64,000 nt of DNA from Candidatus Multivorans sp. (GCA_965247095.1 OZ251997.1:384001-448000); one strand, 5' to 3'. Counted from the first letter of the stretch, positions 37,509 through 54,200 are shown. Numbers and translations are program-made. Notes: a model not told the origin generated them from the letters alone.

Positions 37509-37898
37509 TCAGCGGATGGTGCGGACTTCGATACCCGGCAGTTCCAGTTCGAGCCAGGCGCGGTCGCCGGTGAGAGCTGGTATTCCTAACAACGAAGCGG
37601 TGGCAAGGCAGGCGCGGTCGCCGAGGCCAAGACCTGCGGATGCAGTTGCGGGCCGGAGCGCGCCGCTTGAAAGGGCGACTTCTGAATCGAAAGGTAGTGT
37701 CTCCATTCTGAATTCGCCCAGCGTCTTCGCGACTTCTCTGGCCTCCCATCCACGGTGATGGAGATGGGCGGCGACTTCAGCGAGGTTCACAGTGGAGATT
37801 GCCGCGCCGTCGCGCAAGGCGGCCCGGACGACCTCGGCGCCAGGCTCGCGCCAGAGCAGGGCCAACAGTGCCGAGGCATCGAGGAGGGCCCGAGCCAC
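37509..37898 (-). CDS. vapC: VapC PIN-domain toxin
   Basis: LLDASAL, STVNLAEV, LGLGDRACLA, TGDRAW. Confidence 0.92.
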   Translation of the reverse strand: MARALLDASALLALLWREPGAEVVRAALRDGAAISTVNLAEVAAHLHHRGWEAREVAKTLGEFRMETLPFDSEVALSSGALRPATASAGLGLGDRACLATASLLGIPALTGDRAWLELELPGIEVRTIR

Positions 37899-37899
37899 C

Positions 37900-38187
37900 T
37901 CAGTCTCGTGCCGCCTCCCGGCGTCGCTCGGCGATGAAGGCGTCGACTTCGCTCCCCGATGAACTTGTGCCGTGCTTCCGGGCAAGGGCCTGGGCGCGGG
38001 CGACTGCCGCGTCCACCGCCGTTTCCACGGTTGTTATCCGGATCGTGTCGCCTTCGAGATCGAGGATGACCTTCTGTCGAGGCTGAAAACCCAATGCCGC
38101 GCGAAAATGGGCTGGTACTACGAGCCGGCCTGCGGAGTCGATGATGGTGGAAGTCTGTGCGGGAGCGGGTGTGGGATCATCTGCCAT
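37900..38187 (-). CDS. vapB: AbrB/MazE-type antitoxin
   Basis: IDSAGRLVVPAHFRAALG, FIAERRRE; directly upstream of vapC. Confidence 0.88.
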   Translation of the reverse strand: MADDPTPAPAQTSTIIDSAGRLVVPAHFRAALGFQPRQKVILDLEGDTIRITTVETAVDAAVARAQALARKHGTSSSGSEVDAFIAERRREAARD

Positions 38188-38198
38188 AGCGCAGGAGT

Positions 38199-38312
38199 CT
38201 ACCATTGTGGCGCAGAATGGGAGGGTGCTCGGCTGTACCACGGGAGTGAGAGTAGTGGCCAGTCGCTGGGGCCAACGGTCAGCACGGCGGAGGGACGGAC
38301 AAAGGTGATCAC
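38199..38312 (-). pseudogene. Truncated fourth copy of the ABC-2 permease
   Basis: GTG start, MITFVRPSAVLTVGPSDWPLLSLPW versus MITVLRLSAVLIGGPRYWLLPLLPLPW, then a stop. Confidence 0.7.
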
Positions 38313-38361: not shown

Positions 38362-38658
38362 CTACACGCAGATCGTCATGCTCCGGAAGGTCAGGTGCAT
38401 CCCGACGGCGGTCAAGAAGGGGGAGCCAAGAGCCTGGCCGACGGCCGTAAGGAGCGCTCCGGCGACCGAGTCGGTCCTGCAACTGTGGCTCCGCGCTCCT
38501 CCAGCCACTCTCGTCAGGTCGGTGACCGTGAGCTGGTCGAGGCCATCGTGGCCGATGGTCGAGGTGCCGCCCGCCATCACGGCGTCAGGCGGTGTGGCGA
38601 AGGAAGCGCCGACGCTCAATACAAGGGCGATCGATGCAGTGGCTAGGAATCTCGTCAT
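38362..38658 (-). CDS. Putative bacteriocin-like precursor B (98 aa: signal, GG-type leader, 2-Cys core)
   Basis: RBS gaaagga; MTRFLA..SFA signal; GLDQLTVTDLTRVAGG; ends TICV; aligns with 40844..41146. Confidence 0.75.
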   Translation of the reverse strand: MTRFLATASIALVLSVGASFATPPDAVMAGGTSTIGHDGLDQLTVTDLTRVAGGARSHSCRTDSVAGALLTAVGQALGSPFLTAVGMHLTFRSMTICV

Positions 38659-38861
38659 GTCCAGTGGTCCTTTCGGTTGTAGAGGGTTGGGGGTAGCCAG
38701 GTGGTGGAGGCCGCTGTCCGCGGCTCTCGAGCCACCTATGGACCAAGACGGAATCGGCGCGGCTCCGTTCGTCTCGGTCACTTCGGTCCGAGCCGGCAGG
38801 GTCGTGTCCTTGCCTTGCTGTGAGCATGAGCCGCCCGACCGGAGGAGCCCGGGAAGCGGGC

Positions 38862-39551
38862 TCAGCCGCTGAGCATCTGCTCGCGGCGCTCCGCACGGGC
38901 GAAGGTCAGGGCGACGATGGCGGCGATGATGAGGGCAATGCCTATACGGTTCTGGACGGCCATGGTGAGCAACTGCTCGGCGTCGCCCCCTTTCACGGCG
39001 AGCGGGTTCCACAATGGCGAGATGCGCGGCTCGACCGAGAGGTATGCCATTCGAAGGTTCGGGGCGAGTAGTGCCATGGTTGCCATTGCGCCGGTGACCT
39101 CGCTTCGGAAGAGGGTGGCGAAACCCATCGCTGCTACCAGGTAGAAAGCGGCTCCCTGCGCCGTGCCGTAGATGGTCTGAACAACTGGAAAGGAAGTGAA
39201 GAAAGCAAAGGTAAGCACCGCCGTCGGCGTCAGACTTGCAAACAGGATCAGCCCTGCGGCAGCGAGTTTTCCGGTCCATACGCGACGGGTGCCGCCGGGT
39301 ACGGTGTAGGCGATCTCCAGGGTGCGCTCGTCGAGTTCGCCGGCGATGATCCGGCCGCCCAGGAAGACGGCGAGAACCGCGACCGGCGCACCAATCAGGG
39401 TGTTCTGTGCGTCGGCGGGCTCGAAGTTGGGCCGAAGCCCGGAGATGAGCAGTATCGCCTGAATTCCCAACCACGGCAGGGGCAGCAGCGGCAGCAGCCA
39501 GTAACGCGGGCCCCCGATCAGCACGGCGGAGAGACGGAGAACGGTGATCAT
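38862..39551 (-). CDS. ABC-2-type permease, copy 3
   Basis: About 6 TM, IAGELDERTLEIAYTVP..GKL; paralog of 39710 and 41406. Confidence 0.88.
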   Translation of the reverse strand: MITVLRLSAVLIGGPRYWLLPLLPLPWLGIQAILLISGLRPNFEPADAQNTLIGAPVAVLAVFLGGRIIAGELDERTLEIAYTVPGGTRRVWTGKLAAAGLILFASLTPTAVLTFAFFTSFPVVQTIYGTAQGAAFYLVAAMGFATLFRSEVTGAMATMALLAPNLRMAYLSVEPRISPLWNPLAVKGGDAEQLLTMAVQNRIGIALIIAAIVALTFARAERREQMLSG

Positions 39552-39709
39552 GCCGGAGCTCGGTCACCGGTCGCCTGGGCCGGCCAGAGGTAGCCGTCCC
39601 CGACCCGTCCGAGGCCATGGCTCTCGATGACCGGTGTAGTGCCCGCCACGACCGAGTTGGGCGGTACAGCGACAGAGGGGCAGACACTCAAGACAAGTGG
39701 CGACTCCTG

Positions 39710-40399
39710 CTAGCGGCTGAGCATCTTCTCGCGACGCTCCGCGCGAGCGAAGGTCAGGGCGACGATGGCGGCGATGGTGAGCGCGATGCCGATGCGGTTC
39801 TGGATGGTCATGGCGAGCAACTGCTCGGCGTCGGCTCCTTTCACGGCGAGCGGGTTCCAGAACGGCGAGATGCGCAGGTGCCCGCCGAAGCCGGTCACAG
39901 AGCCGTTCAAGCCGAATAGCGCAATCGTGACCAAGGCACCGCTCACCTCGCTGCGGAACAGCGTGGAGAAACCCATCGCCGCGGCTAGGTAGAAGCTGGC
40001 TCCTTGGCCAGCACCGTGGAGGGTCTGGACGACCGGAAACGCGGTGAAGAAGGCGAACGCCAGAACAGTCATCGGGATCAGGCTGCCAAGCAGGATCAGG
40101 CCTGCGGCGGTTAGTTTCCCCCACCAGACCCGATGGGCGCCGCCCGGGACGGTGTAGGCGACTTCAAGGGTGCGCTCGTCGAGTTCGCCGGTGATGATCC
40201 GGCCGCCGAGAAACACAGCGAGGATCGCTACTGGCGCACCGATCAAGGTGTTCTGTGCAGCGGCGGGTTCGAAGCCGGGACGGCCGGTGAACAGCAACAG
40301 CACCGCCTGAAGGCCTAGCCAAGTCAGTGGCAGCAGAGGTAGCAGCCAGTATCTTGGCCCTCCGATCAGCACGGCGGAAAGACGGACAACGGTTCTCAT
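39710..40399 (-). CDS. ABC-2-type permease, copy 2
   Basis: Same motifs, 229 aa. Confidence 0.88.
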   Translation of the reverse strand: MRTVVRLSAVLIGGPRYWLLPLLPLTWLGLQAVLLLFTGRPGFEPAAAQNTLIGAPVAILAVFLGGRIITGELDERTLEVAYTVPGGAHRVWWGKLTAAGLILLGSLIPMTVLAFAFFTAFPVVQTLHGAGQGASFYLAAAMGFSTLFRSEVSGALVTIALFGLNGSVTGFGGHLRISPFWNPLAVKGADAEQLLAMTIQNRIGIALTIAAIVALTFARAERREKMLSR

Positions 40400-40523
40400 T
40401 GCAGCTCTCCCCCGCGGGTTGCTTGGCCCGACCGGAGGTAGGTGTCTCTAGGCGGCGCGACGCCTCCTTCGCCTTGCATGTAGAGGGTGGTGGGCGGAGG
40501 GACTGGGGTGCAGGTACTCCGGT

Positions 40524-40733
40524 TCAGCATGTCCCGTCGCGACGAGCGGCCATCCTGCCGACGATCCAGAGAGCTGGCAGCGAGAAGAGGGATGCGATGG
40601 CGACGAACAGGACCGGAGAACCGCCGACGAGGGCCAACAGCCGACCGCTCAACCAGCTTCGCCCGAAGGCGCTGCCCGGGGCAGGTCGCAGCGGCCGGTA
40701 GGGGCGGCTTTGTAGGTCCATGAACGTCGCCAT
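40524..40733 (-). CDS. Small single-TM peptide (possible accessory or immunity protein)
   Basis: RBS ggaagga, ATG 40733, hydrophobic LLALVGGSPVLFVAIASLFSLPALWIV segment. Confidence 0.4.
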   Translation of the reverse strand: MATFMDLQSRPYRPLRPAPGSAFGRSWLSGRLLALVGGSPVLFVAIASLFSLPALWIVGRMAARRDGTC

Positions 40734-40843
40734 CGAGTCCTTCCAAACAGGAGCGTGATGCGCTATCCGCCCGCCTCTTTCCGGGGCCGAAGCCGGCACC
40801 CGCAATCAGAGAGTCTCATCGAGCGAGACGGCGCCGTTGTTGG

Positions 40844-41146
40844 CTAGACACACACAGCGTCCGCGAGGAACGGACCGGCCAACCCGGCAGCGTGCATGAG
40901 CCCCCTGCCCGTGTAGATCCCTACGAAGACAAAGGCCTCGCCCGTCGTCTCAAAAGCAGCAGTGCAAGCTCCGGACCACCAAGCTGCTCCCATCACGCCG
41001 ACCATCTCGGCATCCGCGAGTTGTTCGAGCCCGGGATTGTCGACGCCCGGATAGTCGCCCGCCACGGCCGTGACAGGCGGTTCTGCGAAGGCGCCGCCGA
41101 CACTCAGTACAAACGCTGCCACTGCGATAGATAGAACTTTCTTCAT
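40844..41146 (-). CDS. Putative bacteriocin-like precursor A (100 aa: signal, GA-type leader, 2-Cys core)
   Basis: RBS gaaagga; MKKVLS..AFA signal; GLEQLADAEMVGVMGA; ends AVCV. Confidence 0.78.
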   Translation of the reverse strand: MKKVLSIAVAAFVLSVGGAFAEPPVTAVAGDYPGVDNPGLEQLADAEMVGVMGAAWWSGACTAAFETTGEAFVFVGIYTGRGLMHAAGLAGPFLADAVCV

Positions 41147-41405
41147 GATTCTTGTTCCTTTCCGTTTCATGGGTTCTTGTTGCCGTCGACCCCTTCGGAG
41201 AGGCCGACGACGCTGGTAGACGGGAAGGTCCTGCGGAAGCCGAGGAGGCTTCGCAGGTCCACCGCCGCGCAGCGCCTTACGGCGTGCAGGGACTGTGGAC
41301 CGCCTATAGACCTATGACGGAATTCGGAGCGGCTTTTTCTGGCGAGGACCCTGAGAGGGGGCTGGGTGGCAGTGGCTGCGTGTCAGGTCGAGGGCGGAAC
41401 CCGGC

Positions 41406-42098
41406 TCAGCCGCCGAGCATCTTCTCGCGGCGTTCGGCGCGGGCGAATGTCAGGGCGACGATGGCGGCGATCGCGAGGGCGATGCCGATCCGGTTCTGGA
41501 CGCTCATCGCGAGCATCTGGTCGGCGTCGGCTCGGTCCACCGAGAGGGGGTTCCAGAACGGCGAGATGCGGAGGGGGTTTTCGCCGAAGCCGGTGATCAG
41601 GCCGTTGAGGCCAAGGAGGCCGGTCGTGGTCAGGGCGCCGGCCACCTCGCTGCGGAACAGGGTGGCGAGCCCCATGGCTGCAACCAGGTAGAAGGTGACG
41701 CCCTGGGCCGCGCCGTAGAGACTCTGGAAGACGGGGAAGGAGGTGAAGAAGGCGAACGTGACGGACGCCATCAAGGCCAGACTGGCGAGTAGCAACAGGC
41801 CGGCTGCGGCGAGCTTGCCGAGCCAGACGCGGTGAGCGCCGCCGGGTACGGTGTAGGCGATCTCAAGAGAGCGCTGGTCGAGTTCGCCGGTGATGATCCG
41901 CCCGCCCAGGAACACGGCGAGAACGGCCACCGGCATTCCGATCAGTGTGTTCTGGGCGGCGTCACGTTCGAAGCCCGTCGCGGCGCCGGCCAACAGCAGG
42001 ATCGCCTGCACGGCTAGCCACAGTAGCGGCAGCAGGGGCAGCAACCAGTAGCGCCGCCCTGCCAGCAGCACCGCGGACAGACGCAGCACGGCGATCAC
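41406..42098 (-). CDS. ABC-2-type permease, copy 1
   Basis: GTGA overlap with the RND-ABC fusion stop; about 6 TM; ITGELDQRSLE. Confidence 0.9.
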   Translation of the reverse strand: MIAVLRLSAVLLAGRRYWLLPLLPLLWLAVQAILLLAGAATGFERDAAQNTLIGMPVAVLAVFLGGRIITGELDQRSLEIAYTVPGGAHRVWLGKLAAAGLLLLASLALMASVTFAFFTSFPVFQSLYGAAQGVTFYLVAAMGLATLFRSEVAGALTTTGLLGLNGLITGFGENPLRISPFWNPLSVDRADADQMLAMSVQNRIGIALAIAAIVALTFARAERREKMLGG

Positions 42099-45000
42099 GT
42101 CGGGGCTCTGCCGCGCGCCGCCTGCGCCAGCCAGAGGTAGCCGTCCTCGAGCGTGGGTTCGACTGGTTCGGCCCGCCGATCGGGGCGGTCGGCAGCCAGC
42201 ACGCGCAGGCGGCTGCTGCCGTCGGGTTCCGGTTGGCGATCGGCGAGCACGGACGCCTCGGGAAGCTCCGGCTCCTCATCTCCGGGCGCCGTCCATGACC
42301 AGACACGGCCTTCGGCCTCTCGGGACAGCGCCGCCGGCTCGCCGTCGAACACCATGCGGCCGCCGGTGAGCACCAGTACGCGCTCGCAGGCCACCGCCAC
42401 GTCCTCGACGACGTGGGTCGAGAAGAGGACGATGCGGTCCTTGGCCAGGCGCGAGAGCAGGTTGCGGAAGCGGACGCGCTCGCGTGGGTCGAGGCCGACG
42501 GTCGGCTCGTCGACGACGATGATCGGCGGCAGGCGCAACAGCGTGCGGGCCACCGCGACCCGCTGCCGCATGCCGCCGGAGTAGCCGCCGATCGGTTCGT
42601 CCGCTCGCTCGTCGAGTCCGACTTCGCGCAGCAGGGAGCCGATGCGCTCCGCTCGCTCCGACGCCTCGATCTGGTAGAGCGCGGCGTAGTACTCGAGGTA
42701 CTGCCGGGCCGTCAGGCGCGCCGGCAGGCCGGCGTCCTGCGGCAGGTAGCCGACGTAGCGGGCCAGCCGTTTCCGTATCCTGAGCAGGGGCACGCCGCCC
42801 AGCGTGATCCGGCCGCGGGTCGAATCCAGAATGCCGGTCACCTGGCGGAGCAGGGTCGTCTTGCCCGCGCCGTTCGGACCCAGCACGCCGACCATGCCCC
42901 GCTCGACATCGAAGCTCACCGCGGCCAGCGCCTTCACCGTGTCGATCGGCAGATCGAGACCGAAGATCCGGGTTGCTGCCGCCCGCCAGAGGCGGATCAA
43001 CATGCCGCGCCAGCCACGGGTGCGCCGGCGGCGGGTTGACCGCTGCTCCCGGCGCACCGTCTCGAGACGGGCCGTGCGACGTCCGAGTTGGATCAGAAGG
43101 ATGATCGTGGAGAGGATGGCCACGACGATGAACCCGCCCACCGCGGGCTCGGTGGCGAGAGCCGGACCGACCAGGCCCGCGAGAAGCGCCCAGGGCAGCA
43201 GGGCGGACAGAACGCCCTCGATGCCGCCCGGCTCGACTCGACCAAGCGCGTCGGCGCGGCCGCGGGCACGCCGGACCTCGGTCAGCAGCCGGGAAGCGAT
43301 CAGCAGTGCGGCAATCCAGGCGCCCAGTTGGATCAGGTCGGCACGGAACCTCATGGCCAGGGCGACCGCGCCGGCGAGCAACAGGAGCAAGGGCAGGATG
43401 CGGTCCCGCGCGTCGGCGGGGTGGAAGGCCTGACCGCCGCGGTCGACGACCTGCTTGGCGAAGTCGGTCGATGCCCGCAGCGCCCGGCGCACCGGCCCCG
43501 GCCGGCCGTAGGTCTTGCGCAGGTGACGGACCACCAGCCGGGGCGGTCCGGCGTCGGCCTCCGGTTCCGGTGTCGGCGGTTTTGGCACCAGCCACACGGT
43601 GAGCCCGAGCAGGGCGCCGGCGATGAGCACGGTCGTCGTGACCTGCCAGAACATGGACTCGATCACGCCGAGAACGAACAACGGGGCGGTGGCCGCGATC
43701 ACCGCGCCGAGCCAGGTCAGAACCACCCAGGGTCCGACGCGGCTGAAGACATCGTCCAGGCGCCGCAGAAAGACGTAGCCGACCGGGATGACGAGCAGCG
43801 TGAGCACGGTCGAGGTCAGAAGACCGCCGATCACCAGGGTCGCGAAGGGCGGCCAGAGCTCGTTCTCGCGTCCCGTGGCGATGGCCAGCGGTGCGAGCGC
43901 CGCGATCGTCGTCGCGCTGGTCATCAACACCGGACGCGCGCGCTCGCGAACCGCGGCCAGGGCGGCGGCGCCCGCACTCCAGCCGGCGCCGAGTACCCGT
44001 TGCTGCATCCGGTCGACGAGCAGAACCGCCGGGTTCACCGCCAGCCCGAGGAGGACGAGCGCCCCGAGCAGCGCCATCGGATCGAGCCCGATGCCGGAGA
44101 ACATCAGCGCCCACAGCGAGCCGAGCAGGGCGAGCGGCAGCGCGAGCAGAACAAGGATCGGCAGGGTCATCGACTCGAACGCCACCGCCAGAACCAGGAA
44201 CACGAGCATCACGACCGGCGCCAGGACGCGCCGGAACCAGCTCGTGTTCTCGTCCGAGCGGTCGAGCTCGATTGTCGTTCCGGGCGGACGGTGGATGCTG
44301 GCAAGCGCCTCGTCCAGGTTGCGGTCGAATTCCAGCCGCGCCGGTCCGCCGCTTGGTACGTCGGACGAGACGCTGTAGATGACCTCCCGCTCGCGGCGGC
44401 CGTTGTGGTGTGTGATCACCGGGGAAGCCGGCGCGCGGCGCACCTGCGCCAAGGCGGCTACTGGCAGGACGCCAGCGCTCGTGGAGACGCGGAGCCGGGA
44501 CAGGCCGCTCAGCGACGCCTCGCGCTCGAAACTGCTGCCGTCCACGACCCGGGCGTCACTGGGTCGGTTCTCCGCGCGCTGGACGACGATCGGAAGCTCA
44601 CGGCCGTTCGGAAGCGGGAAGCCGCTGTTGATGCTCGTACCCTCACGGCCGGCGAGACTCAGCATCGGCAGCACATCGTCGAGCAGGACGCCGAAGGTGT
44701 CGAAGGCGCGACGGTTCGGGCTGACGTGGATCTCGTCGGGGCCGGGCCGTGAGGCTAGAAAGGCGCCGCTGATCCCCTCGATCTCCTTGAGCCGCTCGGC
44801 GACCTCCGTGGCCAGACCGGTCAACTGGTCGTTGTCGTTTCCGGACAGGATGACCCGTTTCGGCCCTGCCCCGAGCAACTCCTGGGCGCCGCCGCCACCG
44901 CCGGGACCGCCGCCCCGACCGCCCGGGCCTTCGCCTTCGCCGGGTCGCAGAATCTCGGTACCGGCGCGCCGGTTCGCGGCCCGGCGTACGAGCTGACGGA

Positions 45001-46912
45001 TCCGCGCCGCGGTCAGTTCCTCGGGGCGGTCCTCGAGTGCCTCGAGGTGGACCGTCAACGAGCCCCCCTCCTCGCGGATCATGCTTTCGACGCGGTCCAC
45101 GCCGTCGACTTCATGGACCGCCTCCAGAGGCTGGAAGGCGCGCACCGCGGAATCGAGCGAACTCCGGCTCTCGTCGAGGCGCACGGAGAACTGGACCTGG
45201 TCCGCGATCTCTGCTTCTGGCGACACTGTGTTTCCGAGCACAAAGGGCAGGGCCACGAGCGCGGTGACGACGACGGCGAGAGCCACCGACGTGATCCAGC
45301 TCGCAGGCCGCCTCAGTGCCGAGGCGAGAACTCCTGCAAACAGGATGCGGATCGGGTCGGGCGGCGCCTGTCCGGCGAAGCGTTCGCGGCGCTGTCGCAA
45401 TCGGGCCAGCCGGCGGATCGCCGCGGGCGCGGCGAGATGGCGGGCCAGCAGCGGTACGAGACCGATCGCCACCAACAGGGAACCGAACAGCGGCAGCAGG
45501 ATCGAGAGGGCGGCGATCGCGATCAGGTTGCGGATCATCGACGATCCCAGGTCGACGAGCAGCGGCGGCACGAAGACGACCGCGGTGGTCACGGACGCGG
45601 CGATGATCGCGCGGGCGGTGCGGCGGATGCCTCCCGCCGCGGCGTCGTCGGGACTTCGGCCCCGCTCGAGGCGGCGTTGGACGGACTCGAAGACCACGAC
45701 GCTGTTGTCGACCAGCAGTCCGACGCCGACCGCAAGGCCGAAGAGGCTGATCAGGTTCAGGGTCTGGCCGGCCAGGTAGAGGAAGGACAGCGCCGCGGCC
45801 AGGCTGACCGGCACCGCGATCGCTACCACCGCCACGGCCCGCCATTGGCGCAGGAAGAGGAACAGGACCGCAAGGGCGATCAGGAAGCCTGAGAGACCGA
45901 GGTTTCTCAGACGGCCGATCTGGGTCTCGACGAGTTCCGCGGCGTCGAGGCTGATGAGCAGATGAATGCCGAGGGGCTCGAGATCTGCGTTGACCTCCTC
46001 GATCCGGCGGCGCAGGTCGCGGCCGAGGCGAACCAGGTTCGCGCCCTCTTCCTGGAAGAGCAAGACCCCAACCGAGGGGTCGCCGTTGACCCGGAACAGC
46101 ATTTGTCGGCGGCCGGGGCCGACTTCGATCTCGGCGACGTGGCGCACCAGAGCCGGCCGGTCCGGCACGATCCGAACCTCGCCCATGGACACCGGGCCGA
46201 CGGGACGGCCGTCCAGCATCACCGCCGTTCGCCCGGCTTCGTCTTCCAGGCTGCCGAGGTAGCGCAAGCGGCCGGCCGCGGCGCGCACCGCCGCCGTCAC
46301 CTGCTCCGTGGTGACGCCGAGCGCTGCACAGCGGTTCGGGTCGACCCAGACGGTCAACTGCCGCGACGCACCGCCGCCGACGATCGCCTGACTGACGCCC
46401 GGCACCGCGGCCAGCCGCGGCGTGACGAGTTCCACGACCAGGTCGTGCAGGGCGTTCTGGTCGGCGGCGCCGGTGACCTGCAGGACCATGGCGAAGCTGG
46501 AAATGGCACTGCTGTCCTGGGCCTGGACGTCCAGGAAAGCGTTCCGCGGCTGGGTGCGGGCGAGGTCCGCGGCGATCCGGCGCACCTCCAGCTCGCGGAC
46601 CTTCAGGTCGACGCCGCGTTCGAAGAGGATCGTGAAGCTGCCGCCGGCGCCGCTGACCTCGCCCCAGGTCTCGGCGACCCGCGGCAGGGTCCGTACCCGG
46701 GCCTCGAGCGGCATCAGGATCTCCCGCTCGATCGTCTCCGGTTCGCTGCCCGGGCGGAAGAAGTTGACGTAGAGCTGGTCGCCGGTCAGGGCCGGGAAGA
46801 GTTCGACCGGCAGTCGTCGCCAGGCGAACAGCCCCAGGATCACAAACCCCAGGAAGAACATCGCCACGGCGACGGGGCGGCGAATGGCAAGGGTGTCGAG
46901 ACCGGCTCTCAC
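42095..46912 (-). CDS. RND (AcrB-family) permease fused to C-terminal ABC ATPase
   Basis: RRPVA..LPVELFP, GLLVDNSVVV, RARPVLMT; then GPNGAGKTT, YSGGMRQR, IVVDEPT, LFSTH. Confidence 0.92.
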   Translation of the reverse strand: MRAGLDTLAIRRPVAVAMFFLGFVILGLFAWRRLPVELFPALTGDQLYVNFFRPGSEPETIEREILMPLEARVRTLPRVAETWGEVSGAGGSFTILFERGVDLKVRELEVRRIAADLARTQPRNAFLDVQAQDSSAISSFAMVLQVTGAADQNALHDLVVELVTPRLAAVPGVSQAIVGGGASRQLTVWVDPNRCAALGVTTEQVTAAVRAAAGRLRYLGSLEDEAGRTAVMLDGRPVGPVSMGEVRIVPDRPALVRHVAEIEVGPGRRQMLFRVNGDPSVGVLLFQEEGANLVRLGRDLRRRIEEVNADLEPLGIHLLISLDAAELVETQIGRLRNLGLSGFLIALAVLFLFLRQWRAVAVVAIAVPVSLAAALSFLYLAGQTLNLISLFGLAVGVGLLVDNSVVVFESVQRRLERGRSPDDAAAGGIRRTARAIIAASVTTAVVFVPPLLVDLGSSMIRNLIAIAALSILLPLFGSLLVAIGLVPLLARHLAAPAAIRRLARLRQRRERFAGQAPPDPIRILFAGVLASALRRPASWITSVALAVVVTALVALPFVLGNTVSPEAEIADQVQFSVRLDESRSSLDSAVRAFQPLEAVHEVDGVDRVESMIREEGGSLTVHLEALEDRPEELTAARIRQLVRRAANRRAGTEILRPGEGEGPGGRGGGPGGGGGAQELLGAGPKRVILSGNDNDQLTGLATEVAERLKEIEGISGAFLASRPGPDEIHVSPNRRAFDTFGVLLDDVLPMLSLAGREGTSINSGFPLPNGRELPIVVQRAENRPSDARVVDGSSFEREASLSGLSRLRVSTSAGVLPVAALAQVRRAPASPVITHHNGRREREVIYSVSSDVPSGGPARLEFDRNLDEALASIHRPPGTTIELDRSDENTSWFRRVLAPVVMLVFLVLAVAFESMTLPILVLLALPLALLGSLWALMFSGIGLDPMALLGALVLLGLAVNPAVLLVDRMQQRVLGAGWSAGAAALAAVRERARPVLMTSATTIAALAPLAIATGRENELWPPFATLVIGGLLTSTVLTLLVIPVGYVFLRRLDDVFSRVGPWVVLTWLGAVIAATAPLFVLGVIESMFWQVTTTVLIAGALLGLTVWLVPKPPTPEPEADAGPPRLVVRHLRKTYGRPGPVRRALRASTDFAKQVVDRGGQAFHPADARDRILPLLLLLAGAVALAMRFRADLIQLGAWIAALLIASRLLTEVRRARGRADALGRVEPGGIEGVLSALLPWALLAGLVGPALATEPAVGGFIVVAILSTIILLIQLGRRTARLETVRREQRSTRRRRTRGWRGMLIRLWRAAATRIFGLDLPIDTVKALAAVSFDVERGMVGVLGPNGAGKTTLLRQVTGILDSTRGRITLGGVPLLRIRKRLARYVGYLPQDAGLPARLTARQYLEYYAALYQIEASERAERIGSLLREVGLDERADEPIGGYSGGMRQRVAVARTLLRLPPIIVVDEPTVGLDPRERVRFRNLLSRLAKDRIVLFSTHVVEDVAVACERVLVLTGGRMVFDGEPAALSREAEGRVWSWTAPGDEEPELPEASVLADRQPEPDGSSRLRVLAADRPDRRAEPVEPTLEDGYLWLAQAARGRAPT

Positions 46913-46925
46913 GTCGCTTTCCGGT

Positions 46926-49900
46926 TCAGGCGCCGGACGGGTCGCGGCGGCGCCGGGTCAGTCGCATCGAGTCGAGTATCAGGTAGAGGCAGGGCAGCAC
47001 GAGGAGCGAGCCGACGGTGGAGGTGAGGATGCCGCCGATGATCGTGTACGCCATCGGGCTTCGCAGTTCCGCGGCTTCGCCGGCGCCTATGGCAAGCGGC
47101 GCCAGGACCAGGACAGTGGTCAGGGTCGTCATCAGGATCGGCCGCAGGCGGATCGCGGCGGCCCGGGCCAGTGCGGTGCGCCGCTCCATGCCGGCGGCGA
47201 GCAGCCGGCGGGCGGTGGCAATCAGGAGGACCGCGTCGTTCACCGCCACGCCCGCGAGCACGATGAGGCCGAGCAGCGCCATGACACCGACCGGCCGTCC
47301 GAGGAAGCCGAGGGTGCAGGCGACGCCGACCAGGGCCAGGGGGATCGAGAACAACACCGTGAGCGGTTGGAGCAGGGACTCGAACGTTCCGGCGAGGACC
47401 ATCAGCACGAGAACGAGCGCCAGCAGCCCCGCCCAGCGCAGTTCGCCGACGGCGCGCTCGCGTTCCTCTTCCTCGCCGGCGAGACGGACGATCAGACCGG
47501 AGGGCAGGTCGGTTGCTGCGATCGTCTCGCCGGCTGCCGCGATCGCGCGCGGGTAGTCGCTGTCGTCGGCGACCCGGGCGGTCACCTGGGCGACGCGGCG
47601 CTGGTCGCGGCGGAAGACCTCGCGGGCGCCCTCGGCGGGGACGAAGCGGGCGACTTGGCCGAGGGCGAGGTCCGCGCCGTCGTTGCTCGTGAAGCGCAGT
47701 TTGGCGAGTTCCTCGGGCCGCGGCTGGGGCAGAGAGAGGACGACGTGGCGCTCCTCGTCTCCAGTCGAGAGCAGGGTGACCCTGCGGCCGTCGAGTGCGG
47801 CCTGGAGCACCCGGGCGATCGTTTCCAGGCCGACGCCGAGGCCGTCGGCCATCGCGCGGTCGAGTTCGATCCGCAGTTCCGGCGGTCCGCCCTCGAACGA
47901 GGAGCGGACGTTCCAGAGTTCGGATCGCACAGCCATCGCGTCGCGCAACCTGGTGGCCGCCAGGCGCAGGTCGGGCAGCGACTGGCCCGCGATCTCGACC
48001 ACGATCGGCGGTCCCGCGGAGCCGAGCGCGCGCGATAGCGCCGACGCCCCGACCTCCCACTCGATCTCGGTATCCGGCAGGTCTTGGAAGTTGGGCTGCA
48101 GGGCGGTCACGATCTGGCCGCCGGTCGGCCCTTCGGCGGACAGCCGGACGAGCAGGCGGGCCGTGTTCTCCTCAGTCAGCTCCGTGGTCACGAGCCGATC
48201 GTCCTCGGGCAGGCGGCCGACCTCGGCCTGGATCGCCTGCAGGTGCTCGCCGGCAGCCTGCCTGACCGCCTCTTCCAGCGTCGCCACGGCGCCGGCGGTG
48301 GCCTCGACGCGCTGGCCGGGCGGGCCGACCATGCGCACCGAGAACTGCCGCGGGTCGGCAGGCGGCAGCAGTTCGCTGCCCAGTCCGAGCAGAACGTAGA
48401 CGGCGCCGGCGGCGGCGAGCACCGCCACTCCGACGACCAGCCAGCGAAGCTGAAGCAGGCCGAGAACCAGGCGCTCGACGGCGCCGAAGGCCCAGCCCAG
48501 CGGACGCGCTTCGTCTTCGTCAGCGTCCACCGGCATGCTGATGGATGCCGCCGCCGATGCGTCGGCCGTGGGCTCGGGCGCGGCGGTTTGCGGTTTGGCG
48601 CGCGGCAGGAGCCAGCGCGACAGGGCCGGAATCAGCATGATCGCGACCGCCAGGGAGGCGCCGAGGGAGGCGGTGACGGTGAAGGCGATGCCTTCGATCA
48701 GGCGCGCCGCCAGACCCTGGACGAAGAGGACGGGCAGGAAGACAACGCACGTAGTGAGCGTCGAGGCGGCAATCGCGCCCGCGACCTCGCCCGTGCCCCT
48801 GGCGGCCGTGTCGGCTGCCGAGGCGCCGGGGCGGTGGCGGCGGTGGATGCTCTCCACGACGACGATCGCGTTGTCGACCAGCATGCCGGCGCCGAGCGCC
48901 AGCCCGGCCAGGGTGATGATGTTCAGAGAGTGCCCCCACAGCCGCATCGCGAACAGCGCGACGAACAGGGACACCGGCACCGCTGAAGCGACGACCAAGG
49001 TCGGACCGAGGGAGCGCAGGAACAGCGCCAGCACGACGACCGCCAGGGCGATGCCGATCAGCGCCGCGTTCGTCAGGTCGTCCATCGCGTCCTCGATCAG
49101 CGCGGCGTCGTCGTTGACCATCGAGACGAGGACCCGGGGCAGGTCGCGCTCGAGGTCGTCGAGCGCCGCGCGCACGGTGCGCGAGACCTCCACGGTGTTG
49201 GCGCCCGCCTCCTTGAACACCTGCAGGCCGACGCCCTCCTGGCCGTTCACCCGCACCAGGTGGTCGATCTCGGCGTGTGCGAGTTCGACCGTGGCGACGT
49301 CGGAGACCCGGATCGGCTGACGGACCTGCCGGCCTCCCTCCGCCTGCTGGGTGCGGTAGCGCACGACGACCCGCTCGACATCGCGGGAGTTCCGGAACCG
49401 GGAGATGCCTCGAACGAGATAGACCTGACCGCCGTCCTCCAGGGTGCCGGCGTCGATGTCGACGTTCTCGGCCACGAGGCGTTGCTCCAGTTGGTCCAAG
49501 GTGACGCCGAACGCCTGCAGGCGGTAGCGGTCGACGCGTACGCGGACCTCCAGTTCCCGCCCTCCGAGGACCCGCACCTCGGCAACGTCGGCGAGCTGCT
49601 CCATGGCCGGCGCCACCTGACGGCGCGCCAGGCGGCGGAGCTCGGCGAGATCAGGTCCTTCCGGCTCGGCGGCCAGCCCAAGGGTGATCACCGGCGACTG
49701 CCTCGGATCGAGTTGGCGGACCAGGACCTCGTCGACTTCGGGGTCGGCCGCGACCGGATTGACCGCCTTCTGCACGTCGATCAGCGCCAGGTCCATGTCG
49801 GCGTCCCAGTCGAAGCGGACGGTGGCGATCAGGCGGCCGGTGCGGGCGACCTGGTGCACCTCGCGGAGGCCGCGCACCGTGAACAGGCGCTGCTCGACCT

Positions 49901-50120
49901 GCTCGCCGTAGAGCCGCTCCATCTCGGTCGGCGGCCGGTCGCCGGAACGCACGGCGACGACGATGGTCGGCGAACGCAGGTCGGGCAGGAGGTCGATCGG
50001 CAGTTCACGCCACGACATCCAGCCCACCAAGGCGAATGCCAGGGCGGTGACGGTGACCGCTACGGGCCGGCGCGCAGCCAGGCGGGCGGGGCCGAAGGTC
50101 TCACCGGATGTTCGAGTCAT
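46926..50120 (-). CDS. RND (AcrB-family) permease
   Basis: LPIDLLPD, GMLVDNAIVVVE, RLRPILMTTLTT. Confidence 0.95.
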   Translation of the reverse strand: MTRTSGETFGPARLAARRPVAVTVTALAFALVGWMSWRELPIDLLPDLRSPTIVVAVRSGDRPPTEMERLYGEQVEQRLFTVRGLREVHQVARTGRLIATVRFDWDADMDLALIDVQKAVNPVAADPEVDEVLVRQLDPRQSPVITLGLAAEPEGPDLAELRRLARRQVAPAMEQLADVAEVRVLGGRELEVRVRVDRYRLQAFGVTLDQLEQRLVAENVDIDAGTLEDGGQVYLVRGISRFRNSRDVERVVVRYRTQQAEGGRQVRQPIRVSDVATVELAHAEIDHLVRVNGQEGVGLQVFKEAGANTVEVSRTVRAALDDLERDLPRVLVSMVNDDAALIEDAMDDLTNAALIGIALAVVVLALFLRSLGPTLVVASAVPVSLFVALFAMRLWGHSLNIITLAGLALGAGMLVDNAIVVVESIHRRHRPGASAADTAARGTGEVAGAIAASTLTTCVVFLPVLFVQGLAARLIEGIAFTVTASLGASLAVAIMLIPALSRWLLPRAKPQTAAPEPTADASAAASISMPVDADEDEARPLGWAFGAVERLVLGLLQLRWLVVGVAVLAAAGAVYVLLGLGSELLPPADPRQFSVRMVGPPGQRVEATAGAVATLEEAVRQAAGEHLQAIQAEVGRLPEDDRLVTTELTEENTARLLVRLSAEGPTGGQIVTALQPNFQDLPDTEIEWEVGASALSRALGSAGPPIVVEIAGQSLPDLRLAATRLRDAMAVRSELWNVRSSFEGGPPELRIELDRAMADGLGVGLETIARVLQAALDGRRVTLLSTGDEERHVVLSLPQPRPEELAKLRFTSNDGADLALGQVARFVPAEGAREVFRRDQRRVAQVTARVADDSDYPRAIAAAGETIAATDLPSGLIVRLAGEEEERERAVGELRWAGLLALVLVLMVLAGTFESLLQPLTVLFSIPLALVGVACTLGFLGRPVGVMALLGLIVLAGVAVNDAVLLIATARRLLAAGMERRTALARAAAIRLRPILMTTLTTVLVLAPLAIGAGEAAELRSPMAYTIIGGILTSTVGSLLVLPCLYLILDSMRLTRRRRDPSGA

Positions 50121-50159: not shown

Positions 50160-51260
50160 TTATTGGGAAACCCGGACGCGGGTGCCGTCGGTCAGGGTTT
50201 CGAGGCCGCGAACGACGACCCGCTCGCCGAGCTCCAGCCCCTGGCGAATCTCGGTGATCTCGTCGTCGCCGAGACCGAGAACGACTTCGCGCCGCACCGC
50301 GCGCTGGCCGTCGAGGACGAAGACGACGCGCCGGCCGCCGCGCTCGGTAACCGCCTCGCGCGGAATGACGGGGACGTCGTTGCGCTGCTCGACGACCAGG
50401 GTCACTTCGACGAACATGCCCGGCCGCAGCAGGCCGCCGGGATTGCGCACCGCCACCTCGGCGCGGAAGGTGTGGGTGACCGGGTCGACCTCGGGGGACA
50501 GGCGGACGACCCCGCCTTCGAACGTCTGGCCCTCCCAGGCGAAGTGCCTGAGCCGGCCCCGCTGCCCGGGGTGGACCCGCGCCAGTTCGGGGCCCACGAG
50601 GTCGATGTCGGCGATCAGGGAGGCGACCGGAGCGATCCGGGCCACCTGGAAGCCCCGGGAAACGAGCTGGCCGTCGGCGATCGGCATGCCGTTCGGGTCG
50701 CGGGCGAGTTCCATCAGCACGCCGCCGATCGGGGTCAGCATCTTCGCGCGGTCCTCGGTAAGCAGGCTCTGCTCCCAGGTCGCCTTCGCGTCTTCGAGCG
50801 CGATCTCGGCGCGGCGCAGCTCTTCGGCACTGATCAGTTCCTGCTCGAACAGCTTGGCGCGGGCGTCGCGTTCGGCCTCGGCGCCCAGGTAGGCTTGGTG
50901 GGTCGCCTCGACCCGGGCCGCGAGCCGTGCGTCCTCGCCGGTGACCTCCGCGATCATCTGCTCGGGGACGACGCGGTCGCCTTCGGCCAGCCGGTCGCCG
51001 GAACCGTTGCGGCCGATCAGCAGTCTCCCCGGCGTCTCGACCTGCAGGACGATGCTCTCGGCCGCTCGCAGAGTGCCGGTGGCGACGATCAGATCCTCGA
51101 CGTTGCCGGTTTCGACCTCGGCCGCGGTGACCGGCACCAGGAAGTCGACGGGGTCCGTGCTGCCGCCGCCTTCGCAGGCGACGATCACGGCGCAGGCGGC
51201 TATCGCGAGGCCCGCATGCCGGAGGCCGGCGATCGGGCGGGAGGGCTGCCGCGGGCTCAT
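50160..51260 (-). CDS. RND periplasmic adaptor (membrane fusion protein), lipoprotein
   Basis: IVAC lipobox, EGDRV, VDPVTHTF, LRPGMF, GLELGERVV. Confidence 0.92.
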   Translation of the reverse strand: MSPRQPSRPIAGLRHAGLAIAACAVIVACEGGGSTDPVDFLVPVTAAEVETGNVEDLIVATGTLRAAESIVLQVETPGRLLIGRNGSGDRLAEGDRVVPEQMIAEVTGEDARLAARVEATHQAYLGAEAERDARAKLFEQELISAEELRRAEIALEDAKATWEQSLLTEDRAKMLTPIGGVLMELARDPNGMPIADGQLVSRGFQVARIAPVASLIADIDLVGPELARVHPGQRGRLRHFAWEGQTFEGGVVRLSPEVDPVTHTFRAEVAVRNPGGLLRPGMFVEVTLVVEQRNDVPVIPREAVTERGGRRVVFVLDGQRAVRREVVLGLGDDEITEIRQGLELGERVVVRGLETLTDGTRVRVSQ

Positions 51261-54200
51261 AGCCCCGCGCCCCCGGTCTCGGCGCGGCCGGCGGCGGCGC
51301 TGTTGTCGAGCCGCACGAAGCGCACCGCGTCCGCGGCGACCGCTTTGCCGGAGGTCTCGTCGCTCAGGACCAGTTCGGTCGGGCCGCCGGCCAGATCGAA
51401 GTCGCCCAGCACCGCCCATCCCGCGCCCGCGGCCGCGGCGTCGAAGTCGATCGGCCGGGAGACGCCGCCGTTCTGCAACTCCAGGTCGTAGGTGCCGAGA
51501 GCCAGCCCCAGGTTCACCGAGACCCGTACGCCGCCGTCGTCGTCCCCTCCTCTTCGTGGTGCGTCTCCACCTCCGTCGCCGACCCGCACTTCCCGACGCA
51601 CGGCCGTGGCGCCGGCTGGCAGGGGCGAGAGCGACGGCACGTGCAGTTCGACCCGCCAGCGGCCGTCTGCCGGCAACTCCGTCCGGTAGATCGCGCGGCT
51701 GTTCCCTTCGCCCGCGGGCGCCAGGGCGGTCGTGCGGCGGTAGCGGCCCCAACTGGTGGGCTGTGCGTAGCGCGACCATTCGGTCGGCGGTCCGCCGAAG
51801 CTCTGGTAGACGAGCAGACCCTGATCCGTCTGGTTCGACGGCGCGAAGAAGCCAGCGAGACCGCCCTGCAGCCGGAAGCCGCCGGCATCCGCTTCATCCG
51901 TCTCGATCGAGAAGCCGGGGTCCAGGTCGTCGACGACGATCATGTCGGTCGTTGACTCGAGGAAGGCGGGCAGCCAGTCGGCCGGCCGCGTGCCGCGCAG
52001 TGGTTCGGCATCGACGATCGTCTCGTTGTTGACGCTCGGCAGATCGATCGGGAACTCCCGGCGGTTCAGCGACAGGTAAGGTGAAGCCAGCATCCTGCCC
52101 GGCACCCTGGAAGTGACCAGACCGAATTCGACGGAGCTGTTTCCCGGGATCAGGGTCGGCTCGCTGGACTCCCAGCGCACGCCGCTCGGTGCGCGGACGG
52201 CGTAGCGGAGCCGGAACAGGCCCGGAGCCTCCTCGCCGTTGTGGACGAAGAGACGGGTCTGGTACTGCGGCAGGCCCTGGTCGTCGTCCGCCAGCCGCAC
52301 GAGTTCGGCGGGGGATACGACGAAGCCCGGCAGGTCGGTCTGGTGGAGGAAGTCGCCGACCAGGCCGGCGAGGTCCAGGCCGGCTTCCTGAGCGGCCCGT
52401 TCGAGGTCGGCGGCGGTGAAGGTCGATCCCCGGTGGTCGCGCATGAGGTTCGCGAGCATCGCGGCGGTCCGTTCCCGGCCGGCGCCGTCCAGAATTGCGC
52501 CGGCAAGGGCCGAAGTCTTCAGATAGAGCGCGTTCAACGCTTTCTTCGGCTCCTCTTCGACGTCCATTTCCGTCAGCGAGGCGCCGAGAACGGCGTCCCA
52601 TACCTCGGGGCGGTCGGTGAGGCTCTGTACGATGGTGCTGGAGACCGAGGAGGCGCCTCCGCCGAGCTGGCTGAAGATGGCGCCCTGCAACACGCTGGCG
52701 ATCGTCCAGCCGAACTCGCGGTCGAACAGGTGGGCCGAGAAGTACGATTCGCCGCCGTTCACCAGCCGGTTCACCAGGTTGTTGCACAGTTCCTCGAGCG
52801 CCAGCGCCTCCGGACCGCGGGCGCCGGTCTGGTACATGAACAGATTGCGGACACCGCCGACCTCCACGTTGCCGCCCGAGAAGTCGTTGCGGAAGAACTG
52901 CTGCAGCCCGGAGGCCTTTGCCCGGGGCAGACCGCCCTCCTGCTCCTCGAACCGCTCCGGGTTGCGGAACAGGAACTCGAAGCGAGCGGTCGGCAGGCTG
53001 CTCTCGCTGAGCAGCAGCATGCCCGGCGGCGCGCGCTCGGTGTCCATCCGCCAGCCGCCGCCGTAGGAGCGCAGGGTCCAGGGAACTTCAACCAGGGTGA
53101 GCTGACGGTAGGGGTAGGGCAGGCCCAGCTCGCGCGCGCTGGTGAAGCGCTCGGCGGCGACTGCCTCGATCTCTTCCCGGGCGTCGGCGAAGAGCTCCAC
53201 GTTTCTCAGATGGCGGGGGTGGAGGAGCAGTTCGATCTCGACGCCCTCGACCTCCGTCGTCCGGCGATCGAACCGACCGGCGACCAGGGCCGCTTCGGGC
53301 ACGACTGCCACGGGTGCGAACCGTTGCCGTTCGCCGGCCGGCTCGGCTCTGCCTGGCCCGGCGACCGTCCAGCCCGAGGGGGCGCCGACCTCCAGGTCGA
53401 GTTCGAAGAAGTCTCTGGGACGCCTTCGCGGATCGGTGAGGCCGACCGACGTGCCGGGGCGCGGCATCCAGGCCAGCGCGGCGGGCAGCGCGACGTAGCG
53501 GCGCTCCGCAAAGCCGTTCAGGGCGCCGAGAAGGATGATCTGGGCGTCCTGGAACTTGATCCGGTTGAAGTCGATCGCGGAATCCAGGTACGCGAAGCGA
53601 AGGTCGGGCCGTCCGTGGGCGCGCAGGCGAAGGTCGACGGCCTCGCCCGCGGCCGGCGAGCGCCCGAGGTCGACCTCGAGCAGGCCGTCGCGGTGGTTGA
53701 ATCCGAGCGTCGCGCCGGCGGTATCCTCAATGGCGTCGACCTGGAGGCCGGGGTTCAGGCTGAAGAGAGCCTGCGAACCGCCGGCGGCGAGGAACCGGAC
53801 GTTGACATCGAGGGTCAGGCGGCCGCGCGGTGCGATGTCGACGGCGCCGTGGATCTGTTCCAGGTCAAGGACCGGTTCGCTCTGGCGTGCCGTGTGGGCG
53901 ATGCGCCAGTCGTCGATTTCGTCGACCCGGTTGCCGGCCGTGACCGCGGCGGCTGCGATCGTTCCGATGGCCGCCGCCAGGAGGCCGGCGCCGGCGGTGG
54001 CCCACAGGCGTCGCCGGGTGTCGTCGAGCCGGGGATGGACGGCGACGGCGACCGCAAGCATCCCAACGGCCAGCGCCGCGACCGTGGCCCGGTTCATCAA
54101 GTTGAAGGCGGTCCAGATCTGGGGCGCGACCTCGGAAGGATTGGTGCCGAAGCCGCCGTTGATCGCCAGCATCGGCAGGACGTAGGTCGGCACGCGGAAG

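Follow-up and report, generated by a model that had tools for sequence, protein, structure and literature searches.

The gene described here lies in a window of 64,000 nucleotides (nt) from Candidatus Multivorans sp. (GCA_965247095.1 OZ251997.1:384001-448000), the window being the whole stretch of DNA that was analysed, with positions counted from its first letter. An operon of six genes on the minus strand encodes, in order, a 333-residue ATPase, a 1183-residue protein, an adaptor, a resistance-nodulation-division (RND) permease that is called the partner RND below, a fusion protein, and a 230-residue permease (Table 1). The fusion protein joins a second RND permease to an ATP-binding cassette (ABC) ATPase in one polypeptide. 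Along its chain come the RND permease, two extra transmembrane (TM) helices, strand 1 and the A-loop of the nucleotide-binding domain (NBD), an insert of four helices, and the remainder of a GldA/DrrA-like NBD.

The RND part is complete. Pfam ACR_tran (PF00873) matches residues 8-1049 in one stretch, from profile position 4 to 1020/1021 (E 5e-139; 465 bits against a cut-off of 28 bits), a full-length match that places the protein in the RND superfamily, and this part can be aligned to E. coli AcrB end to end. It is 31% identical to the partner RND, and among solved structures the nearest to it are AdeB-, MdtB- and AcrB-type chains (E 1e-68 to 1e-55). All NCBIfam RND models, including HAE-1, score far under their cut-offs on the fusion (362 bits against 1250). 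Beyond the RND domain the chain continues for 556 residues. This domain mapping agrees with the first-pass annotation, made from the DNA alone, which had described an AcrB-like region of about 1050 residues running in frame into TM helices and an NBD, and whose coordinates and motif readings were all correct when the fusion sequence was read again. The periplasmic part of the fused RND also holds a glycine-rich low-complexity stretch, PGEGEGPGGRGGGPGGGGGA (residues ~655-680, nt ~44870..44950, minus strand), which in a three-way alignment is not seen at that place in the partner RND or AcrB.

The C-terminal extension ends in an ABC ATPase that retains its catalytic motifs. Pfam ABC_tran (PF00005) matches residues 1331-1471 (E 9.3e-27; 94.7 bits against a cut-off of 25 bits). 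Conservation was assessed in an alignment of 108 sequences, consisting of the window protein and 107 homologues of 1500-1900 residues, from which 13 shorter proteins (913-1368 residues) had been dropped as probable fragments. Walker A (GPNGAGKTT), the Q-loop (LPQ, 1390), the signature (SGGM), Walker B with its Glu (VVDEP) and the H-switch (STH) are each kept in 106-108 of the 108 sequences, in line with the intact Walker A, signature, Walker B and H-switch first reported. Matches to the NCBIfam models for NBDs (GldA, DrrA, NodI, LptB and others) all start near residue 1325 of the fusion and at positions 13-16 of the models, and strand 1 is therefore absent from the contiguous match. The best of these models do not reach their equivalog cut-offs (GldA, 164.5 bits against 402.6; DrrA, 161.3 against 312.45; NodI, 129.9 against 521). 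The fused NBD and the stand-alone 333-residue ATPase are 38% identical over 279 residues, from strand 2 to the C-terminus and with the C-terminal domain included.

A strand 1 pattern, h-x-h-x-x-L-x-K-x-Y, sits 190 residues upstream of the contiguous NBD match, in the segment PRLVVRHLRKTYG (residues 1124-1136, nt 43505-43543). From this strand to Walker A the distance is ~209 residues, against 22 in stand-alone relatives, and the contiguous strands 1 and 2 of the canonical NBD fold are not present in the fusion. P1124, L1131, K1133 and Y1135 are invariant in all 108 sequences, and Y1135 would occupy the position of the adenine-stacking A-loop residue of NBDs.

The detached strand lies between two membrane regions. 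The linker ahead of it is 74 residues long in 100 of the 108 aligned sequences and shows two peaks of hydropathy, 1063-81 and 1091-1109; an AlphaFold model of residues 1050-1605 has helices there, at fragment positions 12-31 and 38-59, with a predicted local distance difference test score (pLDDT) of ~90. Behind the strand, the gap from G1136 to V1326 measures 189 residues (nt 42938-43504), with a range of 182-197 over the 108 sequences and modes at 189 and 190; the first-pass estimate, about 185 residues with several hydrophobic helices between strand 1 and Walker A, was close. Four hydropathy peaks (1171-89, 1193-1211, 1234-52 and 1258-76) mark four predicted helices, and the insert is made up of an amphipathic helix, TM15-18, an Arg-rich cytoplasmic loop (1217-1229) and a helix ahead of strand 2. 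The segments predicted to be cytoplasmic contain 12, 5 and 15 Lys+Arg residues and the turns 0, 2 and 0, a positive-inside pattern. As the extra helices are even in number, two in the linker and four in the insert, every cytoplasmic piece can remain cytoplasmic.

The insert is under selection, since its length is held at 182-197 residues and its loop is better conserved than the rest. Among the 57 homologues with less than 65% overall identity to the window protein, identity to that protein is 73% in the NBD core, 71% in loop 1217-1229, 66% in strand 1, 58% in the RND part, 48% in the linker and 43% in the whole insert.

The split NBD is predicted to re-assemble. An AlphaFold2 model of residues 1050-1605, built from 72 aligned sequences (pLDDT 85.6; predicted template modelling score, pTM, 0.72), has a strand at 1126-1135. 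VIA-align superposes model residues 75..484 on residues 2..228 of LptB chain 4p31_B (Z 27.3, root-mean-square deviation (rmsd) 1.6 Å, 222 of 230 residues aligned) and model residues 73..549 on 4yer_B (Z 29.3, rmsd 2.9 Å, 264 of 277 aligned); the alignments to solved NBDs start at model residues 69-76 and chain residues 1-5. As model residues 277-484 amount to only 208, the extra aligned residues must stem from the detached strand. When residues 1050-1330 were folded without the NBD (pLDDT 82.8, pTM 0.53), the strand 1 segment was no longer a strand and its pLDDT fell to 57-61. In these predictions the strand thus forms only with the NBD present, and the ATPase fold is predicted to close around the insert, with the detached strand in its normal place. 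This answers positively, at the level of a model, whether the two pieces of the domain can come together, a check that the first-pass annotation had proposed.

For the linker, strand and insert taken together, a phmmer search of 1.84 billion representatives with residues 1050-1340 gave 35 hits and no relatives outside the fusion family. All six matches of at least 1,500 residues align at ~1025-1340, behind an RND domain. A stand-alone module of linker, strand 1 and insert was considered and rejected, as the shorter matches look like fragments; one of them (P0136) begins inside RND TM8-10. Another protein, P0123 (539 residues), begins in TM13, which may reflect either truncation of the gene call or a genuinely split form. 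Compared with the Protein Data Bank (PDB), the model of residues 1050-1330 matched no known fold for the six extra helices (best Z 8.5, rmsd 9.2, 100 residues aligned); the next matches were small three-helix Mrp/complex-I subunits at Z 7.4-8.4, the range of common arrangements. Among ESM Atlas structures there were no useful look-alikes of these residues, the best scores being 0.76 and 0.75.

Table 1. Features of the operon and of the RND-ABC fusion gene, in window coordinates.
Feature	Position (nt)	Strand	Residues	Details
Fusion open reading frame (ORF)	42095..46912	(-)		GTG start; 1605 codons; uninterrupted frame
RND (AcrB-like) permease part	43766..46912	(-)	1-1049	12 TM helices, two large periplasmic loops
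Linker with TM13, TM14	43544..43765	(-)	1050-1123	74 residues
Detached NBD strand 1 and A-loop Tyr	43499..43543	(-)	1124-1138	PRLVVRHLRKTYGRP
Insert between NBD strands 1 and 2	42938..43498	(-)	1139-1325	
Rest of ABC ATPase	42098..42937	(-)	1326-1605	Strand 2, Walker A K1351, Q-loop, SGGM, Walker B E1469, H1500, C-terminal domain
TM4 Asp402-Asn403	45704..45709	(-)	402-403	Aligned to AcrB D407-D408; D and N each 108/108
TM10 Asn960-Pro961	44030..44035	(-)	960-961	Aligned to AcrB K940-N941; N 107/108, P 107/108
Stand-alone 333-residue ABC ATPase	54805..55806	(-)		Pfam ABC_tran E 1.5e-29; DrrA-/GldA-like; strands 1 and 2 contiguous
1183-residue protein	51257..54808	(-)		N-terminal ABC-2-like membrane domain and large extracytoplasmic part
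Periplasmic adaptor (membrane fusion protein) lipoprotein	50160..51260	(-)		Pfam HlyD_D23; NCBIfam RND_mfp 159 bits against a 94.9-bit cut-off
Partner RND permease	46926..50120	(-)		1064 residues; Pfam ACR_tran E 1e-198
230-residue six-helix ABC-2-like permease	41406..42098	(-)		Start codon overlaps fusion stop codon (GTGA)

The fusion is widespread. Proteins of 882-2809 residues were searched with the C-terminal 556 residues; 8000 candidates were scored and 1539 were found at E <= 0.001. Among the matches listed, all 120 carry both PF00873 and PF00005, with 52-96% identity to the query region, and several of the homologues sit on contigs of 4-7 Mb. Their database names are generic only, and no NCBIfam model reaches its cut-off. 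A scan of loci, with one genome per species, returned 80, of which 66 hold the family-specific part. According to the record titles these come from Acidobacteriota (including Vicinamibacterales and Thermoanaerobaculia), Gammaproteobacteria/Pseudomonadales, Desulfobacterota, KSB1 and Latescibacterota. In the phylum of the window itself, the 291 family-specific residues were found in 15 of 301 genomes and 11 of 186 genera, including all four genomes of its own genus, and in those 15 genomes the frame is at least 1587 residues long wherever it is not cut by a contig end.

The joint between the two parts is also supported by sequence data beyond the assembly, as the first-pass annotation had advised checking. 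The source genome is a single 4.6-Mb contig. An independent contig from another study (run X7) covers 42801-44300 with 72 substitutions and no gap, and there are no indels or joints in any of the four public runs compared; one of these runs (X1) matches the window exactly and may be the source sample. Run X23, a metatranscriptome, contains short contig fragments from a relative at two places, 43144-43363 (8 differences) and 43977-44284 (11 differences); since RNA libraries can contain DNA, these fragments are not evidence of transcription. That two genes were joined by misassembly, stop-codon loss or a shift of frame, the case in which homologues would be separate genes, can be ruled out for practical purposes: frames broken within the RND part at two loci and the short protein that begins in TM13 would agree with it, but 107 full-length homologues, 66 loci, the open frames in the phylum, the near-constant linker length and the gap-free independent contig all keep the two parts joined.

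The two broken frames (L020 and L049, both from metagenome-assembled genomes, MAGs) appear as adjacent tblastn pieces in different frames, and may be assembly errors or pseudogenes. A further set of homologues or open frames is longer than usual, at 1840-2336 residues (P0065-P0067; L041, L062, L072 and L073; G249 and G279). Three of the long database proteins also have Pfam matches to sigma-70 region 4 (PF04545 and PF08281). These frames could reflect a further N-terminal fusion, or upstream genes read in stop-to-stop frames.

The genes around the fusion form a cassette with it. By ORF coordinates, start and stop codons overlap between the 333-residue ATPase and the 1183-residue gene, and between the latter and the adaptor (ATG at 51260), and 13 nt separate the partner stop codon from the fusion start codon. 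The 1183-residue protein has weak matches to ABC2_membrane_2, Golvesin_C and GldF, and is conserved upstream of the adaptor. The 230-residue permease has a sub-threshold match to ABC2_membrane_2 (E 5.3e-5; 23 bits against a cut-off of 27.2 bits). Two RND paralogues are thus encoded with one adaptor, the gene content of a heterotrimeric (MdtB2C-type) pump.

This arrangement is conserved. The 230-residue permease gene is next downstream of the fusion in 63 of the 66 loci, among them KSB1 and Latescibacterota loci of only 28-29% identity. In the remaining three, L026 is truncated by a contig end, L069 ends 437 nt past the fusion, and L018 lacks the gene over 2.2 kb of downstream sequence. Immediately upstream of the fusion, the partner is found in 45 loci, 40 of them with the adaptor and 35 with the large permease too. 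Eleven of the 66 loci are too short to tell, and ten have at least 3.3 kb upstream without a partner, nine of these being gammaproteobacterial; in one (L040) the neighbours are unrelated genes. In the genomes without an adjacent partner, a partner orthologue was found elsewhere in five of five tested (53-58% identity), and in the two examined it sits in an operon of ATPase, large permease, adaptor and partner. Where the six genes are split into two loci in this way, the fusion stays with the 230-residue permease. The system therefore consists of two modules, and each combines a single NBD with a single ABC-2-like membrane domain and a single RND.

Several other genes were noted near the operon. 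Two more paralogues of the 230-residue permease lie downstream (39710..40399 and 38862..39551, minus strand), with ABC2_membrane_2 scores of 17.2 and 25 bits. In the region 38362..41170 (minus strand), small ORFs with signal-peptide-like starts lie between the permease paralogues (one at 40844..41170 and one at ~38400-38700); relatives of the 108-residue ORF occur only in the closest loci, at 36-67% identity. Where the transporter locus ends (37509..38241, minus strand), a PIN-domain protein (Pfam PIN E 2.9e-15) overlaps a 113-residue upstream ORF, and together they look like a VapBC-type toxin-antitoxin pair. On the plus strand, divergent from the operon and outside it, 56029..57510 encodes a secreted protein with cytochrome c and Cu2_monoox_C matches.

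The proton relay residues of both RND proteins were aligned to AcrB, again as the first-pass annotation had proposed. AcrB D407 corresponds to D402 in the fusion and D416 in the partner, D408 to N403 and N417, K940 to N960 and N961, and N941 to P961 and D962. The D407/D408/K940 triad therefore reads D/N/N in both members of the pair, and the HAE-1 (AcrB-like) relay is not present as such in the fusion, in which the equivalents of the TM11 residues R971 and T978 are kept, as they are in the partner. The two proteins differ at TM10, with AVNPAV in the fusion against AVNDAV in the partner, as had first been noticed. The partner has Asp-Asn in TM4 and Asn-Asp in TM10 in 43 of 43 sequences (42 loci and that of the window itself), while Pro follows the TM10 Asn in 107 of 108 fusions, and on these alignments the difference is real and old. 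Seven usable RND paralogues of the same genome were compared, and their TM4/TM10 pairs include DD/KN, DD/RN, DG/NN, DA/ET, DN/NN and DD/ND. As ordinary stand-alone pumps can also have no acidic residue in TM10, the comparison does not establish a degenerate relay, and a 'dead proton relay' was dropped as a statement of fact, being unproven with the TM4 Asp and TM11 Arg kept and stand-alone paralogues also lacking a TM10 Asp.

A second, more distant RND-ABC fusion of 1437 residues was found on a contig of an uncultured bacterium (L078, 478..12504). Strands 1 and 2 of its NBD are likewise separated by an insert, here a non-membrane one of 42 residues. The gene is flanked by one for an ABC-2/M1-peptidase-like permease and, directly downstream, by one for a TolC-like outer-membrane factor. 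The locus has no 230-residue permease, and a stand-alone ATPase gene lies just upstream of that for the partner RND.

What these data favour, at somewhat better than even probability, is that the fusion is a subunit of a hetero-oligomeric MdtBC-like RND pump that carries the tethered ATPase of an ABC-2-type exporter, and most likely the fused ATPase powers the downstream 230-residue ABC-2-like permease. The pump unit would be the fusion, the partner RND and the one adaptor. In the topology we infer, the chain would cross the membrane twice after RND TM12, then make strand 1 with the adenine-stacking Tyr, cross the membrane four more times and complete the NBD, the fold closing round the insert. 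ATP hydrolysis by the fused NBD would drive the 230-residue permease, the ABC module would export a substrate from the cytoplasm or inner leaflet right beside the RND pump, and the pump would then expel it via the adaptor and an outer-membrane channel.

The first-pass annotation had offered two roles for the tethered ATPase, driving ABC-2 permeases or compensating for a degenerate proton relay. The first is now the better supported, because of the GTGA overlap with the 230-residue permease gene and the presence of that gene downstream in 63 of the 66 loci; compensation for the relay is a less probable reading. A complex predicted for residues 1050-1605 with the 230-residue permease scored 0.59, and the best of three controls 0.00; the runs share at least 88% of contacts, and the partner pLDDT is at least 73. 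The mark for such scores is reached by 58 of 80 solved complexes and by two of 110 mismatched pairs, with scores of 0.60 or less in seven of the 80 and in both of the mismatches that pass. Because pairs of an NBD and a permease are similar to complexes already solved, the pass may reflect what the predictor has learned from these, and the prediction lends the tether weak support.

A number of points weigh against a tethered ABC-2 exporter. The assignment of partners is made from gene order and predictions. The 230-residue permease is only sub-threshold in Pfam and no NCBIfam model matched it, and the six extra helices resemble no known fold. There is no outer-membrane factor gene within this operon. 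A contig from a Ca. Multivorans azotirespirans MAG (L018) has no partner RND within 6.8 kb upstream of the fusion and no 230-residue permease within the downstream distance given above, the only such case in a close relative. A pure tether would also leave unexplained the conserved loss from the fusion of the TM10 Asp that every partner keeps. Lastly, NBDs must dimerise and RND pumps are trimeric, which leaves three options for the stoichiometry: a trimer with two fused protomers, a heterodimer of the fused NBD and the 333-residue ATPase, or bridged trimers.

The second of these options is a stoichiometric variant of the favoured explanation and is a possible, though less probable, arrangement. 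The fused NBD would be one half of a single heterodimeric ABC transporter, with the 333-residue ATPase as the other NBD and the 230-residue permease and the membrane domain of the 1183-residue protein as its membrane halves. A single fused protomer per RND trimer would then suffice. The two NBDs are paralogous, and their similarity extends into the C-terminal domain; the six genes co-occur and, when split, each module keeps one component of each kind; and the distant L078-type system also pairs a stand-alone ATPase with a fused one. Both NBDs, however, have fully canonical motifs, so no degenerate site hints at an obligate heterodimer.

It is unlikely, by comparison, that ATP acts on the RND cycle itself. 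Movement of strands 1 and 2 on ATP binding would in this case be passed via TM15-18, packed on the RND TM domain, to the fused protomer, which would be driven or gated by ATP instead of, or besides, the proton gradient, with ATP replacing or supplementing proton flow in a subunit without an acidic residue in TM10. The consistent Asn-Pro of the fusions against the Asn-Asp of the partners would fit this, and in fusions further removed the pair is NN or NP; conservation is strict for both the covalent link and the length of the insert, and the insert lies at an NBD site that, in the available text on Wzt, moves on ATP binding (PMC6379404). On the other hand, the TM4 Asp is present in all 108 fusions and the equivalents of AcrB R971 and T978 are retained, and since stand-alone paralogues in the same genome read DG/NN and DN/NN, TM10 without Asp is no mark of a dead relay. 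The NBD also travels with an ABC-2-like permease of its own, and one NBD per protomer in a trimer cannot make the usual ATP sandwich without a partner.

Still less probable is a purely regulatory ATPase that senses the ATP level, or clamps the RND pump or its assembly on and off, with no ABC transport. The CFTR NBD1 insertion at the same site is, in the text available, regulatory (PMC2217481), but in the fusion the residues for hydrolysis are kept in 106-108 of the 108 sequences. Its dedicated permease gene is, moreover, translationally coupled and co-conserved.

Export across the bacterial envelope is treated as having two alternative engines, RND pumps driven by protons and ABC transporters driven by ATP. 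The fusion unites both in one polypeptide, within a conserved six-gene cassette whose carriers belong to several phyla and are mostly uncultured bacteria from marine, sediment and other environments. Full-text literature searches for a published description of an RND-ABC fusion found none and matched only general efflux papers; in the parts available of a 2021 Chem Rev review, 'fused' is used only of MacB and SecDF. No paper was found on 'Candidatus Multivorans'. If the ATPase is tethered as proposed, the system would be a natural, hard-wired two-step exporter, in which ABC transport across the inner membrane is handed over to RND transport across the envelope, and a natural test case for the division of labour in RND hetero-oligomers. 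If movement of the NBD were transmitted mechanically, the fusion would give an RND transporter a primary-active energy input for the first time, while its partner in the same trimer is driven by protons, and textbook accounts of how RND proteins draw their energy would have to change. An NBD divided by four membrane helices shows in addition how large an insertion the ABC fold can accept between its strands 1 and 2.

Among known systems, MacAB-TolC also places an ABC ATPase alongside an RND/MacA-type adaptor (the adaptor here matches the MacA model at E 1.5e-9). MacB, however, has a four-helix membrane domain of its own and a periplasmic domain, and no RND, whereas here the ATPase is joined to an RND permease. 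The NBD is C-terminal to the RND domain and no MacB model is among the 25 best NCBIfam matches, and the fusion is therefore not of the MacB type. The HAE-1 pumps AcrB, AdeB and MexB share with the fusion a full-length ACR_tran domain and the R971 and T978 equivalents; they differ in the relay (D408 to Asn, K940 to Asn and N941 to Pro in the fusion) and do not have the long C-terminal extension of 556 residues.

On the ATPase side, the nearest systems are the ABC-2 (type V) exporters DrrAB, GldAFG, NodIJ and WzmWzt/TarGH. The NBD is closest to the GldA, DrrA and NodI models and a six-helix ABC-2-like permease is encoded next to it, but its scores are under the family cut-offs and it is fused to an RND protein, not free. 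In WzmWzt, according to the available text, the connection between strands 1 and 2 is a gate helix at the water-lipid interface that packs on the permease and moves by ~8 Å on ATP binding (PMC6379404). An extension to the membrane at this site is shared with Wzt, where it is one short amphipathic helix, against 189 residues and four membrane helices here. The regulatory insertion of CFTR NBD1, residues 404-435, is likewise placed 'between strands 1 and 2' in the portion of text available (PMC2217481). It differs in being of ~30 residues, soluble, mobile and phosphorylated, and not membrane-embedded, and there is no sequence relation.

The closest parallel to the pump unit is found in MdtABC (MdtB2C) and MuxABC, which also have two paralogous RND genes (31% identity in the pair here) beside one adaptor gene. 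In MdtB2C, as far as the available text goes, the two paralogues divide energy transduction and substrate binding, with a proton relay of unequal importance (PMC4338810); here the paralogues differ at TM10. Unlike in those systems, one paralogue bears six extra TM helices and an ABC ATPase, the cassette adds two ABC-2-like permeases and a second ATPase, and the D-D-K triad is present in neither paralogue. Together, the division of labour in MdtB2C and the strand 1-strand 2 connection as a known insertion site, in Wzt as in CFTR, support the reading of the fusion as an RND subunit with a tethered ATPase.

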